64,000 bases of DNA. Source: Spirochaetota bacterium (GTDB taxonomy: Bacteria; Spirochaetota; UBA4802; UBA5550). Below the pieces are notes generated by a model. That model did not search any database and was not told where the DNA came from. It was given only the letters and a program-made list of their open reading frames with translations. Positions within the stretch are counted from its first letter, which is position 1, and each line of letters opens with the position of its first letter. Shown here piece after piece: positions 30,840 to 35,624 of this stretch. The position numbers and the translations under genes are program-made. Where the stretch lies: NCBI GenBank assembly GCA_963664815.2, contig CAXXHB010000003.1:3104001-3168000 (forward strand), written 5' to 3'.

Positions 30840-32060
30840 TCATAACATATCGCTTCCTGAGGGATTCTGGAATAGTCTAAGCCCGAATTCCGGAATTACG
30901 GCTATTAGATGTTCAAATATCTCTGCAACAGTTACCTCGTATTCCACAACATCAATAATATTTGTGAACACATATATCTGAAGCGGAATTCCGTTTGCTG
31001 TCGGTTCTAAAAGCTTCGCCATCAGTTTCTTTTCACTGTTAATCCCGGTATGACTTACAAGATAAAGTTCAACATATTTTCTGAAGATTCCTATGTTAGT
31101 AATACCGCTTTTATTAATCCTCTCATCCCTGCCGTATTTTACCGTCATTGCAAGTTCTTCCAGTTCATCACTCCCCTTAAGTATGGCAAGTTTCTGAATC
31201 CTCTTTAAAATCTTTTCATCCGGAAGGGTTATGCTGTTTATATCAATGTATATCACCCGTTTAATTCTTCTCCCGCCCGATTCTTTTACACCATGCCAGT
31301 TTTTGAAAGTTTCAGAGATGAGAGAATAGGCGGGGATCATACTGATAGTATTATCCCAGTTCTTTACTTTTACTGTACTCAGGGATATGTCGATTACTTC
31401 TCCGTTTACTCCATACTTTTCCATTTCGATTGAATCACCTATCACTACAAGGTTATTTGCATTGATCTGGATACTTGCTACAAGCCCAAGTATCCAGTCA
31501 CGGAAAATCAATATTATCAGAGCGGTCATTGCGCCGAATCCGCTCAATATTCCCCATGGTGACTTGTTGAAAAGCACAGATACAATCACTATTGCTACGG
31601 TGATAGCAAGAAAAATCTTAAGCATCTGCAGATATCCCTTTATCGGGTTCTTTCTCGAAACTTCAAATTCCTGATAATAATGATCCAGGGCATCAAGAAA
31701 CGCATTTACAGTAAAAAGTCCCATGGCTGCCAGTGTTGAAAATAGAATTCTTTCCAGTATCGTTCCGAATCTCGGGGTATCGGAAAATATAAACTCTGTT
31801 GTGAAATACAAAACCACAAACGGAAACATCCTGTTAAGCTTCCTGTATACATCTTTTTTTAGAAGAGACCTGTTAAACGGGATAATATCATTTTCTGCGG
31901 ACCTCACCGCGATTCTGTTTACAATCCATCCGGCGGCTTTCCCGAGAGTAAAGCTTACAACAAGGGCGATAACCAGTCTTATACATACATCCCCCATAAC
32001 TATAAGCTTTCTGTGCCAATCAACAGAATATAACCATATTGTCAGTATTTCGTTCATCAA
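30840..32060 (-). CDS. Mechanosensitive channel, MscS family (YbdG/MscM-like)
   Basis: PIKGYLQMLKI, LIFRDWILGLVASIQI, VKVKNWDNTI, FKNW...ESGGRRIKR, FGLRLFQNPSG. Confidence 0.9.
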   Translation of the reverse strand: MMNEILTIWLYSVDWHRKLIVMGDVCIRLVIALVVSFTLGKAAGWIVNRIAVRSAENDIIPFNRSLLKKDVYRKLNRMFPFVVLYFTTEFIFSDTPRFGTILERILFSTLAAMGLFTVNAFLDALDHYYQEFEVSRKNPIKGYLQMLKIFLAITVAIVIVSVLFNKSPWGILSGFGAMTALIILIFRDWILGLVASIQINANNLVVIGDSIEMEKYGVNGEVIDISLSTVKVKNWDNTISMIPAYSLISETFKNWHGVKESGGRRIKRVIYIDINSITLPDEKILKRIQKLAILKGSDELEELAMTVKYGRDERINKSGITNIGIFRKYVELYLVSHTGINSEKKLMAKLLEPTANGIPLQIYVFTNIIDVVEYEVTVAEIFEHLIAVIPEFGLRLFQNPSGSDML

Positions 32061-32091: not shown

Positions 32092-33858
32092 TCAAATATT
32101 CAGCTGGTTTCCTGTAATCTGTTTTAAAAGTTCCATTGCCGCTTCTTCCGGGCCGTTCATTTCATAACCCGAAATTCCAAGCCTCGTTCTGATCTGTCCG
32201 ACAAAAACATCTCCGGCAAAAAATGCATCAAAGAATCTCACAGCAAGTTTATCGTGAAGATCCCTGTACTGCGGTGGCCCGAATATATTCGCAAAGTATG
32301 AATGAACTATCCCGGTTGAAGTGGTTGTCCCCTTGCTCATAACCATCCCTTCCCTGAAAACATGGAAAGCATGATCAACTGATGTAAACCTTTCGATTAT
32401 CGGATGATATTCATCAACCTGTTCGTAATTGTTTGCATAGAGAACCATATCAATTTTATATCCTTTTATCACAGCAGCATATGTTGTGACCGGGAGTATT
32501 ATCCTCGCATTTACTTTCGTGGCACTCATGAGAATCGATCTGTCTATCTGTCCAAAGGCGTATCCCGGTTTGAGATCGTCAATACGCAGGAATGCGCCTA
32601 TTTCAGTTCCGCAGGCAACTACATCTCCGTTTTCCTTAAGTTCGAGGGAACCCATATCATCGGCAACTACAATCATATCCCGCATGTACTCACGTCCGGC
32701 ATTACGGAATGCTTCAAGTGTTTCAGACTTCCCCGCACCCGTATCGCCCATAAGAAGAATTGTGGATTCTTTATCACCCTTCAGCAGTACTTTGACAAGC
32801 GCTCCATGAAACGGAAGTCTCCCTCTTTTCATCATAATAGCATTATGAAGAGTCAATACCATCTTTTTCAGATATCCGAAATAACCGAACATATCACGGT
32901 TGGGACATGCTCCGACCATAATTCCCTCTTTTTCATCATCAAAGAATACAACCGGAATTTCATCAAATCTGTCAAGTTTATCACCCGGCACACCAAAAAG
33001 GAAAATAGCATCCGGTTTAATCGAAAGATCGGCATCATCAGCAAGTTCAAAAAGATTACACAGGGAAAAGCCCAGTTCATAGAATGATTCATGAAAGTAT
33101 ATATTTACCACGAGTTCCCCAACTTTCGCAGGGTAGCATATCCACTCAATACTGTTTATCCCAATCAGGTCGAGCGGATTCTCTTCTATTTTAATAAAGC
33201 TCCCGGATCTCTTATTACTCCTTGGTTCAAGAATCACAGGAGGATTAAGAAGTATCTGCCGTATAATCCTTATATCTGAAAGCTTTTCAAAGGAACCTTC
33301 AGGGTATGGTACCTTCCAGGGAATCCCTATAGCGGCAATACCGGCACCAGCGGATAACTGTCTGTATATCCGGGGATGAGTACCGGTAATATTCTCCTGT
33401 ATGTCACGGTATGCACCCATTACAAGATCATTAAGTTTTTCAACAGTCTGGTTGAATGTCCGGTATGGTCTCCTGTCAAGATTATCCCCTTCAGAATCGC
33501 ATATCACATAACGTTCAAAGCTCCTCCAGTAATTATAAAGATTTTCTATAAAATCATTCAGCAGCTGTATATCCCGGAGGAACATGGCCGATTCGGGAAT
33601 TATTTTCGGGATATAGCTTCCATCAAGCCTTATAAGGTTCTTCAGGGTTATATGCAGTATATGTATCTTTTCTTCAGTAATTTCCCCTTCAAAGATATTC
33701 AGAAATCTCGACTGATGTCCATCAAGCTCTTTAATAAACCTGTTGAGTATCCTTACAAAAAGTTCACTCTGCAGCAACTCTTCTCTTGTCTCGCACAAGC
33801 GTCCCTTTGTATGGATAATAATCTTGTTTTCTATTTCCCTGTAACTTGTTATAGCCAT
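32092..33858 (-). CDS. PEP-carboxykinase-like protein (PEPCK/HprK P-loop superfamily)
   Basis: YFGYLKKM, LPFHGA, P-loop GDTGAGKSET, VADDMG, NARI; AAGGAG SD. Confidence 0.75.
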   Translation of the reverse strand: MAITSYREIENKIIIHTKGRLCETREELLQSELFVRILNRFIKELDGHQSRFLNIFEGEITEEKIHILHITLKNLIRLDGSYIPKIIPESAMFLRDIQLLNDFIENLYNYWRSFERYVICDSEGDNLDRRPYRTFNQTVEKLNDLVMGAYRDIQENITGTHPRIYRQLSAGAGIAAIGIPWKVPYPEGSFEKLSDIRIIRQILLNPPVILEPRSNKRSGSFIKIEENPLDLIGINSIEWICYPAKVGELVVNIYFHESFYELGFSLCNLFELADDADLSIKPDAIFLFGVPGDKLDRFDEIPVVFFDDEKEGIMVGACPNRDMFGYFGYLKKMVLTLHNAIMMKRGRLPFHGALVKVLLKGDKESTILLMGDTGAGKSETLEAFRNAGREYMRDMIVVADDMGSLELKENGDVVACGTEIGAFLRIDDLKPGYAFGQIDRSILMSATKVNARIILPVTTYAAVIKGYKIDMVLYANNYEQVDEYHPIIERFTSVDHAFHVFREGMVMSKGTTTSTGIVHSYFANIFGPPQYRDLHDKLAVRFFDAFFAGDVFVGQIRTRLGISGYEMNGPEEAAMELLKQITGNQLNI

Positions 33859-33923
33859 TTTTATCTCTCCTTTAAAAACAGGGTTGCCGGGAATTCCAAC
33901 CGGTACGATGTTTTTTATTCCCG

Positions 33924-34050
33924 AAAAAACGAAAAAAGCCGGCGCTTATGCAACCCGCTTCATTACTCCGTGTATTCATTACACCGGATAACAGAAAAAG
34001 AAGGCAACATAAAAGCCGGCTTACCATCAACTGCCCCGAGGGCCTTTGAT
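33924..34050 (-). ncRNA. Candidate cis-regulatory leader RNA (hairpin plus long intrinsic terminator, attenuator-like)
   Basis: AUCAA-AG-GCCC-UCG-GGGC-AG-UUGAU hairpin, then AAGCCGGC...GCCGGCUU long interrupted stem followed by U6-CG-U6, ending about 65 nt before the start codon. Confidence 0.65.
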
Positions 34051-34083
34051 AAATCTTCCGTGTTTAATTTTTAATTAAGAGCG

Positions 34084-34111
34084 ATAAAAACACCATCACT
34101 AAAACGGTCAA
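34084..34111 (-). promoter_or_regulatory. Possible sigma70 promoter for the leader and PEPCK-like gene
   Basis: TTGACC-N16-TTTTAT with a TG extension. Confidence 0.35.
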
Positions 34112-34166
34112 CCATTTTTTTAGTTCACCCGGATTTTTTAAAATTAACTTGTTTCTTCGGACTTTA

Positions 34167-34541
34167 TTATTTTTTACATTTATCTTCAAAATTCTGCTCA
34201 AGCGTAAAAAGAATAATCCGTTCATCTGCTTCAGTGCTCAAATCAGTATAAAGGCTTTTCACTTTAAGCCCGGTAATATCAAAAATAATCGCTTCAAGCA
34301 AAGGCTTTGCATTTTCAAGAAGCATAATACGAACCTGCTTTATCAGCGAATGCCCTTCGTCATTTTTTGTAAGCTGCTCCTCTGCTTTTGTCAGAACACC
34401 CTTTAATCTGACGACAATCATGTCATCAATGATGTATGATTTAGTCTCCACGGGACCACGCCCCATGTACTCCTTTTCAAATCTAATCATTGCTGCACAA
34501 ATCTCGGCCTCAATCATACCCTTTGTTTTTACCTGTATCAT
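34167..34541 (-). CDS. DUF2294 / MpsC-family protein
   Basis: GRGPVETKSYIIDDMIVVRLKGVLTKAEEQL...LIKQVR...ITGLKVKSLYTDLS...ERIILFTL matches the family pattern as I recall it. Confidence 0.85.
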   Translation of the reverse strand: MIQVKTKGMIEAEICAAMIRFEKEYMGRGPVETKSYIIDDMIVVRLKGVLTKAEEQLTKNDEGHSLIKQVRIMLLENAKPLLEAIIFDITGLKVKSLYTDLSTEADERIILFTLEQNFEDKCKK

Positions 34542-34691
34542 TAAAACAGTTCTCTCTTATTTATCATTAATTTCTGCAAATTACGCGAACTCCGGTTCTG
34601 TCGGCATGGTGTCTCATATTGAATCAATAATGGGGTTGAAGGTCAAATCTCCAGCAAACCCTGATCATCACCCACATAGTGTACGCAGGAA

Positions 34692-35624
34692 TCACAAAGC
34701 GGTCATCATATCATAACTCCTGAAAATGTTTTTAAGCATCGGATCTGTCACTACCGCAAGTACTACGCTCTTTTCCAAGTCATCCATGAAAACCTTTTCT
34801 CCGGCAAAGTATTCGACAGCCTTCACCGGATCTGGGAGATCCCTCACCATATTCACAAGGAATGACAGTCTCTGCATGTCCCTCTTCTCAAAAGGCAAAC
34901 CTTTCTCCCTGTTAAAATCTGTTCTTTCCCTGTACTGTTTAAGTATATCGCTGAGTTTACCGAACTGCTGAAGATCAAGCCTGTACTTTTCAATGAAATC
35001 CATCGTAAGAGCCTCGCCGGTATCAACTTCCGCCATCATAAGAATAATATACTGAAAGAGATGATAGTTTCTTGATATAATAGATCTTAAGATTTCATCC
35101 GGAAGTTTGATGAATGAGCCGATAAATGATTTCATACCTTTTATCTTCAGGAAATATGTATTCAGCATCTCATTATCAAACTTTGTAAGTATCATAAACA
35201 GCAAAAGTTTATCATTGTTTATATAAGTCGAATTAAGCGCAAGATCAAGAAGTCTCTTATTATCAAGGAAAAAAAGTATTTCATCAAGTACCCTGTCAAT
35301 GGAATTATCATACATCATGCAGTATCCGAATACAAACATTATCAGCCGTTCAAGTTTATCGAGTGTAAATTTTTCGGAATTAATATACTTTTGAAGATGT
35401 TCCATGTCGCGGAACAGCATAAGAAAATATATAAACTGCTGGTTCACCTCATAATCATCAGAAGCAAACACATTATCCACAAGCTCCAGAAATTCATCGA
35501 GTGTTATATTTTCAAAAATCGGTTTGACCTTGTTGATCTGCGGAAAAGATGAATCACTCATGATCGCTTCAATATAAAAAAGCTGATATCTGCTAACCTC
35601 GCCTTCTCTGACTTCTGTATCCAT
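34692..35624 (-). CDS. Hypothetical helical protein
   Basis: 310-aa ORF, co-oriented and closely spaced with the upstream ORF; no recognisable motif. Confidence 0.75.
   Translation of the reverse strand: MDTEVREGEVSRYQLFYIEAIMSDSSFPQINKVKPIFENITLDEFLELVDNVFASDDYEVNQQFIYFLMLFRDMEHLQKYINSEKFTLDKLERLIMFVFGYCMMYDNSIDRVLDEILFFLDNKRLLDLALNSTYINNDKLLLFMILTKFDNEMLNTYFLKIKGMKSFIGSFIKLPDEILRSIISRNYHLFQYIILMMAEVDTGEALTMDFIEKYRLDLQQFGKLSDILKQYRERTDFNREKGLPFEKRDMQRLSFLVNMVRDLPDPVKAVEYFAGEKVFMDDLEKSVVLAVVTDPMLKNIFRSYDMMTAL

Follow-up and report, generated by a model that had tools for sequence, protein, structure and literature searches.

A stretch of 64,000 nucleotides from a Spirochaetota bacterium (contig CAXXHB010000003.1; hereafter the window) carries on its minus strand a leader element that extends from position 34059 to about 33924, between a gene of the DUF2294 (MpsC) family and a gene for a protein of 588 amino acids resembling phosphoenolpyruvate (PEP) carboxykinase (PEPCK). 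We have little doubt that it acts in cis as a conserved regulatory attenuator and that its family is missing from Rfam 15. The computation establishes its structure and covariation, the overlap of its helix P0 with a terminator, its linkage to DUF2294 and a common theme among the genes that follow it. The reading favored here, to which we would assign a probability of roughly 0.55, is a DUF2294-dependent antitermination that controls an inorganic-carbon regulon.

The Leader and Its Two Folds

The central part of the element is a hairpin at 34050-34026 (AUCAA / AG / GCCC / UCG / GGGC / AG / UUGAU, minus strand), which had been drawn correctly in a preliminary description made from the sequence. 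It consists of helix P1 (AUCAA with UUGAU), a 2x2 AG/AG loop and helix P1b (GCCC-UCG-GGGC). The 5' boundary had been placed 9 nt too far 3', as the conserved GGAAGAUUU (34059-34051) is part of the element. This is the 5' strand of helix P0, made up of GG (P0a), AAG (the 5' half of a 3x3 loop), AUU (P0b) and a bulged U. The 3' strand of P0 is found at 34018-34025, where GG pairs with the UU of P0b and U with A6, AAG supplies the other half of the 3x3 loop, and CC is the partner of the 5' GG. The last five nucleotides of this strand, AAGCC (34022-34018), are at the same time the 5' base of the terminator, in which they pair with GGCUU. Therefore, P0 and the terminator are mutually exclusive.

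The terminator (33924-34022) consists of a long interrupted stem (34022-33936) and a U6-CG-U6 tail that ends near 33924, and rests on RNAfold and on covariation. As described earlier, AAGCCGGC (34022-34015) pairs with GCCGGCUU (33943-33936). The G+C-rich GCCGGC base lies directly before the tail, as predicted for an intrinsic (Rho-independent) terminator. Both hairpins are present in the RNAfold structure of 33915-34080, which has an energy of -54.2 kcal/mol against a mean of -39.3 for shuffled sequences (standard deviation 3.85, z = -3.87), and none of 200 shuffles equals the native fold. The direct repeat of GCCGGCUUUU, already reported, is present at 34020-34011 and 33943-33934 and is a consequence of the terminator base, whose palindromic GCCGGC core has U's after it on either arm. 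A simple terminator scanner lists nothing at the element, since its rule allows only loops of 3-8 nt.

A pairing of GGUAA with UUGCC had been put forward as the competitor of the terminator. It is possible in four of the five same-genus sequences (G001 being the exception) and no equivalent was seen by eye in other genera, where no systematic test was made. The conserved competitor is instead helix P0, formed by the 5' GGAAGA and UAAGCC.

Upstream of the element, a promoter-like site can be read from the sequence at 34084-34111 of the minus strand: TTGACC (34111-34106), a 16-nt spacer and TTTTAT (34089-34084), preceded by an A-tract. A promoter scanner does not list it because the -10 hexamer fits only four of six positions. 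By the usual -10 spacing it implies a start at about 34077, an estimate close to the start near 34075 that had been suggested. The distance of more than 100 nt from the DUF2294 stop codon is likewise confirmed, with 107 nt separating the two.

A Widespread RNA Family

In a BLAST search of 41 related genomes, the spacer was found in four genomes of the same genus, with 75-82% identity and with the same two flanking genes in all four. The block conserved in this genus begins 5' of the coordinates given earlier and comprises, from 5' to 3', an A-tract, TTGACC, a spacer of 16-17 nt, TTTTAT, CGGAAGAUU, the hairpin, GGUAAGCCGGC and the terminator base. All five sequences have GTTGACC and the A-tract without change. 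In the terminator apex the letters vary freely and pairing is always kept. In one of these species the U-tract lies about 20 nt from the Shine-Dalgarno sequence, and therefore there is no space for a separate promoter.

A covariance model built on the five sequences (R1) retrieved further copies in two more genera, and copies upstream of the PEPCK-like gene family in a GC-rich Spirochaete metagenome-assembled genome (MAG) and in a MAG titled Deltaproteobacteria. It also retrieved long-form relatives with an insert of 58-90 nt at the hairpin apex. Since R1 misplaced the 5' end of nine marine members and drew reverse-strand matches on symmetric terminators, it was rejected as a family model and replaced by R2, which was built from a hand-checked alignment of 28 sequences. 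R2 gave 77 matches in 92 sources and later 103 matches in 97 sources. These 103 copies are located in Spirochaetota, in the phylum of a Sporomusaceae MAG, in MAGs titled Deltaproteobacteria and Planctomycetales, and in metagenomes. The RNA was not found in five Omnitrophota, two Neomarinimicrobiota and one KSB1 MAG. The closest named relative of the GTP-dependent PEPCK (PEPCK-GTP) from marine locus L231 belongs to Omnitrophota (77% identity).

The window itself is absent from the R2 seed. In a search of its whole genome (5.2 Mb) with R2, the window element scores 48.7 bits (E 5.8e-7) and the next match, at E 0.99, is an unrelated plain terminator. The element is thus single-copy in this genome, by BLAST as well as by R2, and a repeat or mobile element was rejected for this reason. 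The window shows all the components that define the family, namely GGAAGAY, the purine-loop hairpin, RUAAGCC and the terminator, all 3' of a DUF2294 gene. The earlier view of the element as a conserved and structured leader of the attenuator type, 5' of the PEPCK-like gene, can be upheld.

Metagenome members were collected with a pattern (GGAAGAY, 24-40 nt, RTAAGCC, 28-58 nt, GGCTTTTTT), whose scan yielded 80 loci from a total of no fewer than 119 stretches that fit it. Many of these loci hold two or three RNA copies; about 20 of the 80 are without a model match and are probably chance matches of the pattern. Loci found via the DUF2294 protein are free of pattern selection and show the natural variation.

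The covariance-model scans give no Rfam 15 family for the element, in agreement with the earlier failure to assign it to a known riboswitch class. In the region 33000-35000 of the window the top overlapping matches, SNORD125 (20.8 bits against 56) and freshwater-2 (21.4 against 49.9), are below threshold; the latter covers 33856-33935 (E 2.1), spans a palindrome at 33878-33902 and looks like chance. There were no matches at E ≤ 0.01 in nine marine metagenome loci and none at E ≤ 0.1 in eight loci from a second phylum, and the top match of one isolated element reached 24.3 bits against a gathering score of 70. The Na+ riboswitch (DUF1646 motif) had no match in any of these scans. On locus L187 the model of the PyrR attenuator (RF00515) reached 16.6 bits, its gathering score being 54, and it had no match in the window. 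A literature search found nothing on a bicarbonate or CO2 riboswitch and no RNA paper naming DUF2294, DUF4914 or DUF6671, an unnamed equivalent in the supplementary tables of motif surveys being possible. In a term search of riboswitch-candidate papers and one orphan-riboswitch review, "carboxykinase" does not occur.

Some members deviate from the simple form. In the long leader variants (L053:2232-2383; L098:2791-2967, which is the same as L144; L142:3279-3453) a multi-stem insert of 58-90 nt is placed at the apex of P1b, and GGAAGA, RUAAGCC and the terminator frame are kept. The insert of L142 includes UCUUCC, which is complementary to the 5' GGAAGA. Other loci have tandems of two complete leaders, both with a terminator of their own and spaced by about 24 nt (L168:2627-2879, L203:1272-1524, L232:1639-1857, L236:2949-3190, L181:1549-1756). 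They are followed by SulP (L203), by DUF3034 and then SulP (L168) or by other genes (L236, L181); L232 ends with its contig.

Architecture and Covariation

When the stretch from GGAAGA to UAAGCC is folded alone, the same design is recognized by eye in 54 of 55 sequences. P0a, GG with CC, is followed by a symmetric 3x3 loop with AAG opposite AAG. P0b consists of an A-U pair, then C-G, U-A or U-G, and then U-A, and leads into a small variable loop. P1, (G)CAA with UUG(C), is followed by a G.G mismatch, which corresponds to the 2x2 AG/AG loop in the window, and then by the variable P1b. GGAAGA is conserved across the family.

Twenty-seven pairs were modeled, comprising P0b, P1, P1b and 14 terminator pairs. 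Over 103 sequences, 88.4% of the cells pair, against 71.9% after shuffling and 28-49% when the partners are slid. A homology search for covarying base pairs had been proposed as a check, and in these sequences 24 of the 27 modeled pairs change on both sides, with a smaller earlier set in agreement; for P1 and P1b this applies to all ten. P0b and the basal pairs of the terminator covary across the family. The facing of the P0 strands is supported because the A6-U pair beside the purine loop changes to G-C five times and to U-A once, because L313 and L314 have Watson-Crick pairs in place of the purine loop, and because changes in the G of UAAGCC are matched by its terminator partner (GC 83, GU 8, AU 5 and UA 4 in 103 rows; GC 82 when the 102 distinct rows are counted).

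The terminator is present in the minimum-energy fold of all 55 family members, with the same arrangement of stem and U-tract, and forcing P0a costs on average 7.8 kcal/mol (range 1.7-11.5) in these sequences. The default state therefore seems to be termination, and for read-through some factor would have to keep P0 closed.

Linkage to DUF2294

In the preliminary description DUF2294 was a mere neighbor gene. It is in fact the feature that tells most about the element: DUF2294 and the RNA form a cassette across phyla, which makes a protein-dependent mechanism likelier than a classical riboswitch. A phmmer search with the window DUF2294 places a same-strand DUF2294 open reading frame (ORF) directly upstream of the RNA in most loci. 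DUF2294 played no part in choosing the loci behind a set of 73 RNA-model matches; these loci were collected through DNA similarity, the PEPCK-like protein or the metagenome pattern. Within this RNA-first set, a same-strand DUF2294 ORF ends at most 150 nt upstream in 35 cases and a DUF2294 ORF lies 150-1500 nt upstream in 11; seven are not assessable.

The two also occur together at the level of genomes. The window's genome has one DUF2294 gene and one RNA, which are adjacent. In the window's family, DUF2294 is present in 16 of 64 genomes and the RNA in all 16 of these, and a whole-genome scan with R1 found the RNA in none of the 48 family genomes that are without DUF2294. The PEPCK-like gene is present in 25 of the 64, many of them without the RNA. 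Among other Spirochaetota, 11 of 301 sampled genomes have DUF2294, and the RNA lies just downstream in six of seven new loci from other families. In the phylum of the Sporomusaceae MAG, DUF2294 is present in 89 of 301 genomes. For the best 30 DUF2294 loci there, the RNA is found at most 250 nt downstream in 16, at about 400-440 nt in three, as a weak match in four and elsewhere in five (upstream of DUF2294 in four of them), with none in two. A whole-genome RNA scan of 151 genomes of this phylum gave nine positives, eight of which have DUF2294 (89 of 301 overall). In locus L171 the order is RNA, DUF2294, RNA, gene.

At several loci GGAAGA begins only 4-27 nt after the DUF2294 stop codon, and there the two must therefore be co-transcribed. 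Four DUF2294 paralogues that are without a GRGP motif have no RNA after them. These paralogues (L231:5751-6143, L221:3101-3493, L161:2477-2839, L281:2562-2915) lie a few genes downstream of regulated PEPCK-GTP or PurC genes. Judged from these genomic arrangements, the tight linkage argues for a protein factor, and the RNA may nevertheless sense a ligand directly.

A Theme of Inorganic Carbon among the Downstream Genes

Most bacteria need CO2 or bicarbonate for carboxylations, and little is known about how it is sensed outside cyanobacteria. When the first ORF after each element is counted as its target, a large group acts around PEP and oxaloacetate: the 588-amino-acid PEPCK-like protein (about 14), PEPCK-GTP (10), DUF4914 (5), archaeal-type PEP carboxylase (3) and a PPDK-like protein (1). 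Others belong to purine carboxylation (PurE 5, PurK 2, PurC 1) or are transporters (SulP 5, one of them as second gene, SbtA-type bicarbonate transporters 2, NuoL/MpsA-like 1, DASS/citrate-type 1). The remainder comprises aminotransferases (3), the gamma subunit of oxaloacetate decarboxylase (2), DUF6671 (2), DUF2294 itself (4), a CO-dehydrogenase subunit (1), a protein of 210 amino acids of unknown function (3) and single others. The common denominator of these targets is the uptake or use of CO2 or bicarbonate.

The 210-amino-acid protein is without a Pfam or NCBIfam match and is the first gene at three independent marine loci (L182:2957-3589, L159:1019-1651, L220:1260-1892). DUF6671 (L195, L205) and DUF3034 (L168) are also recurrent. 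All three are candidates for roles in inorganic-carbon metabolism.

The DUF2294 Protein

The DUF2294 gene of the window (34167-34541, minus strand) encodes 124 amino acids, matches Pfam PF10057 with an E value of 4.7e-38 and is the sole copy in the genome. Bacillus subtilis, taken as a control, also has a DUF2294 gene. Its AlphaFold model (predicted local distance difference test, pLDDT, 92.7) is of the alpha+beta type, with two beta-hairpins and a long central helix. Weak Foldseek look-alikes are uL23, S6, Bet3 and the C-terminal half of H-NOX, and a sequence search of the PDB gave one chance-level match (2gpi, E 0.99). The homodimer prediction passes its controls, with an interface score (ipSAE) of 0.51 against 0.00 for the best control; among solved structures, 20 of 30 homo-pairs attain this ipSAE mark, as does one of 23 single-chain proteins. 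Agreement of contacts between the runs is 100%, the pLDDT is at least 83 and the interface is sheet-to-sheet. This modeling supports the formation of a dimer, which would suit the two-fold symmetry of the AAG/AAG loop.

Proposed Mechanism and Alternatives

We propose that the nascent leader first folds into the imperfect hairpin, with P0a, the AAG/AAG loop, P0b, P1, the small purine loop and P1b. Without help, the RNA would prefer the terminator and the downstream gene would be off. A DUF2294 dimer would bind the hairpin and keep P0 closed while the polymerase passes the U-tract, and the polymerase would then read through into the PEPCK-like gene. Such a logic would be like that of LicT and SacY with their ribonucleic antiterminator (RAT), or of HutP with the hut terminator. 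We infer the binding of DUF2294 to the RNA, the direction of the effect and the identity of the signal. The signal would most likely be the inorganic-carbon status of the cell, because the controlled genes import bicarbonate or use CO2 or bicarbonate, and since importers and PurK are among the targets, the genes would most likely be read through when inorganic carbon is scarce. That the RNA, alone or in an obligate complex with the DUF2294 dimer, senses bicarbonate or CO2 directly seems improbable. If it did, it would be the first RNA-based inorganic-carbon sensor, controlling SbtA-, SulP- and MpsA-type uptake together with PEPCK, PEP carboxylase and PurK/PurE in at least four bacterial phyla.

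Several observations weigh against antitermination by DUF2294. No covariation is seen in P0a itself. In five genomes of one genus in the window's family (L286, L288, L291, L297, L300), GGAAGAC is replaced by GAAAGAC or GAAAAAC and UAAGCC is kept; the change of the second G to A creates an A.C mismatch and weakens P0a, and no matching change is visible in the DUF2294 residues of that genus. No PDB structure is significantly similar to the DUF2294 model (best Foldseek E 0.013), in which no RNA-binding fold can be recognized. Conservation of GGAAGAY, RTAAGCC and GGCTTTTTT among the metagenome members is by construction, because the pattern by which these members were chosen fixes those letters. 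The RNA-positive genome G515 shows no DUF2294, and 20 of the 66 assessable RNA copies have no DUF2294 gene within 500-1500 nt; by eye, about two thirds of these 20 are extra copies on multi-copy contigs. DUF2294 and the RNA are separated by a promoter-like site in the genus of the window, with additional hairpins in two species, so that co-transcription of the two is not universal. In S. aureus, deletion of mpsC caused no growth phenotype in air, according to the available excerpts of PMC6689103. Finally, which way the regulation acts and what it responds to were guessed from the identity of the genes.

The main rival reading is a protein-independent riboswitch, in which P0, P1 and P1b would form an aptamer for a small ligand linked to inorganic-carbon status, the ligand would lock P0 and thereby block termination, and DUF2294 would be no more than a frequent member or neighbor of the regulon. 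Bicarbonate with Mg2+, oxaloacetate, aspartate, or the purine intermediates AIR or CAIR, which would accumulate at low CO2, are candidate ligands. A structured, covarying domain that overlaps the expression platform, as is generally found in riboswitches, is present here (24 of 27 pairs, with AAGCC common to P0 and the terminator), and conserved purine loops, strong covariation and a terminator overlapping the hairpin are known from many ON riboswitches. Tandem copies about 24 nt apart occur in several riboswitch classes, the downstream genes share a single metabolic theme, and the 20 RNA copies without DUF2294 nearby would be expected. What this reading leaves unexplained is the presence, in several phyla and before unrelated targets, of an unregulated DUF2294 gene on the same strand 5' of the RNA, as well as the co-occurrence of RNA and DUF2294 by genome, which is not seen for the target gene. 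For bicarbonate in particular, an ON switch would raise importers and PurK at high bicarbonate, opposite to the expected need. A riboswitch of this kind is therefore regarded as possible but rather unlikely.

Two further explanations are very improbable. The element might be a plain strong terminator that ends the DUF2294 transcript and is decorated by a hairpin, with the downstream gene having its own promoter. The terminator is indeed strong and the default fold, and in two same-genus species more than 200 nt between U-tract and gene leave space for a promoter. At many loci, however, such space does not exist, as 4-40 nt lie between the U-tract and the start of the ORF; the 5' hairpin is conserved and covaries across phyla, copies exist in tandem and without an upstream DUF2294, and in the window's genus the conserved promoter-like site is upstream of the element and not downstream. 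An independent trans-acting small RNA of about 140 nt, made up of promoter, hairpin and terminator, has an equally slight chance of being the explanation. In the genus of the window the element does begin after a conserved promoter-like site and end in a terminator, but it is always on the same strand as a closely following ORF and these ORFs are of one metabolic theme. Moreover, where only 4-27 nt separate it from DUF2294 there is no separate promoter, and no conserved single-stranded seed stands out, the conserved letters being in helices and internal loops.

Comparison with Known Systems and Significance

DUF2294-dependent antitermination would have close parallels in protein-dependent systems. 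In the RAT recognized by LicT, SacY and BglG, the internal loops of an imperfect hairpin are conserved and its last few 3' nucleotides also belong to the 5' base of a terminator; on the current model a dimeric protein keeps the hairpin closed, and the regulator gene often lies beside its target. The leader described here has a RAT-like overlap of hairpin and terminator and an adjacent regulator-like gene, the binding in this case being a prediction. RAT systems differ in having a CAT-PRD protein and sugar phosphotransferase targets, instead of DUF2294 and inorganic-carbon genes, and in the sequence and loops of the RNA. The upstream gene in the window matches PF10057 only and is thus not a CAT-PRD antiterminator, not all genes of the window having been scanned. 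In the hut operon of B. subtilis, a small regulator gene is followed by a terminator and then by the structural genes, and the ligand-activated HutP prevents termination. The gene order here, a small gene, a terminator in the gap and a target, is alike. HutP differs in fold and family and recognizes UAG repeats rather than a closed hairpin; the protein in the window matches PF10057 only and its fold search returned no HutP, UAG repeats not having been looked for in the RNA.

The pyr attenuators bound by PyrR are similar in that the regulator gene lies within the operon with attenuators on both sides, as in L171, and in that binding to a leader hairpin is coupled to the choice of the terminator. 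They differ in that binding favors termination and that the protein belongs to another family. The Na+ riboswitch is likewise an ON-type leader that controls a terminator and is sometimes found in tandem, and it has a few gene types in common with the present family (oxaloacetate decarboxylase, an ATP synthase subunit). We know of no partner protein for it, and its theme is sodium, in contrast to carbon here. It is built of P1 and P2, the conserved bases being those at the foot of P1 and in the loop of P2, as given in the available excerpts of PMC9337991. MpsC of S. aureus, the founding DUF2294 protein, adjoins the MpsAB transporter of bicarbonate or dissolved inorganic carbon. In the excerpts of PMC6689103, mpsC comes after the mpsAB bicarbonate-transporter genes, its deletion is without growth effect, mpsA transcription falls in 5% CO2 and no RNA element is described.

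The finding joins three things that were unconnected: an RNA motif without an Rfam 15 match, a protein family (DUF2294/MpsC) of unknown function, and a set of bicarbonate and CO2 genes. It gives DUF2294 a testable function, as a putative regulator acting on RNA, and suggests that an antitermination system or riboswitch class, probably a new one, exists in several phyla. It also flags three poorly known PEPCK-like families, the 588-amino-acid family, DUF4914 and DUF6671, for inorganic-carbon metabolism.

Neighboring Genes and Further Observations

The PEPCK-like gene (32092-33858, minus strand) has a strong Shine-Dalgarno sequence about 10 nt upstream. Its 588-amino-acid product matches no Pfam family and has a weak NCBIfam match to the P-loop region of PEPCK (E 1.6e-4); relatives are named PEP carboxykinase in their source records. 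The top Foldseek matches of its model (pLDDT 74.6) are ATP- and GTP-dependent PEPCKs, with E values of about 1e-10. A PDB search with the family profile gave P-loop noise only, and the region shared with DUF4914 is confined to the surroundings of the kinase P-loop. The family is strongly conserved, with 53-61% identity across MAGs titled Bacteroidales, Omnitrophota, Chloroflexota, KSB1 and others, 4327 relatives having been scored among 8000 candidates.

A gene for an MscS-like channel (30840-32060, minus strand; Pfam MS_channel_2nd, E 7.6e-13) begins 31 nt 3' of the PEPCK-like gene and, by spacing alone, is probably in the same transcript. Upstream of DUF2294, a gene on the minus strand (34692-35624) encodes a protein with a weak match to the LBF_1199 family of NCBIfam (67 bits, where the cut-off is 200).

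In the window, the stretch from the U-tract to the Shine-Dalgarno sequence contains a small palindromic hairpin (CCGG ... GGAAUUCC ... CCGG region, 33878-33902, minus strand). In two species of the same genus, 200-230 nt of extra hairpin-rich sequence separate the terminator from the gene (L010:1670-1905; L012, minus strand, about 1290-1460), and G003 has two more G/C-rich hairpins after the DUF2294 stop codon. These hairpin-rich sequences may be small inserted repeats.

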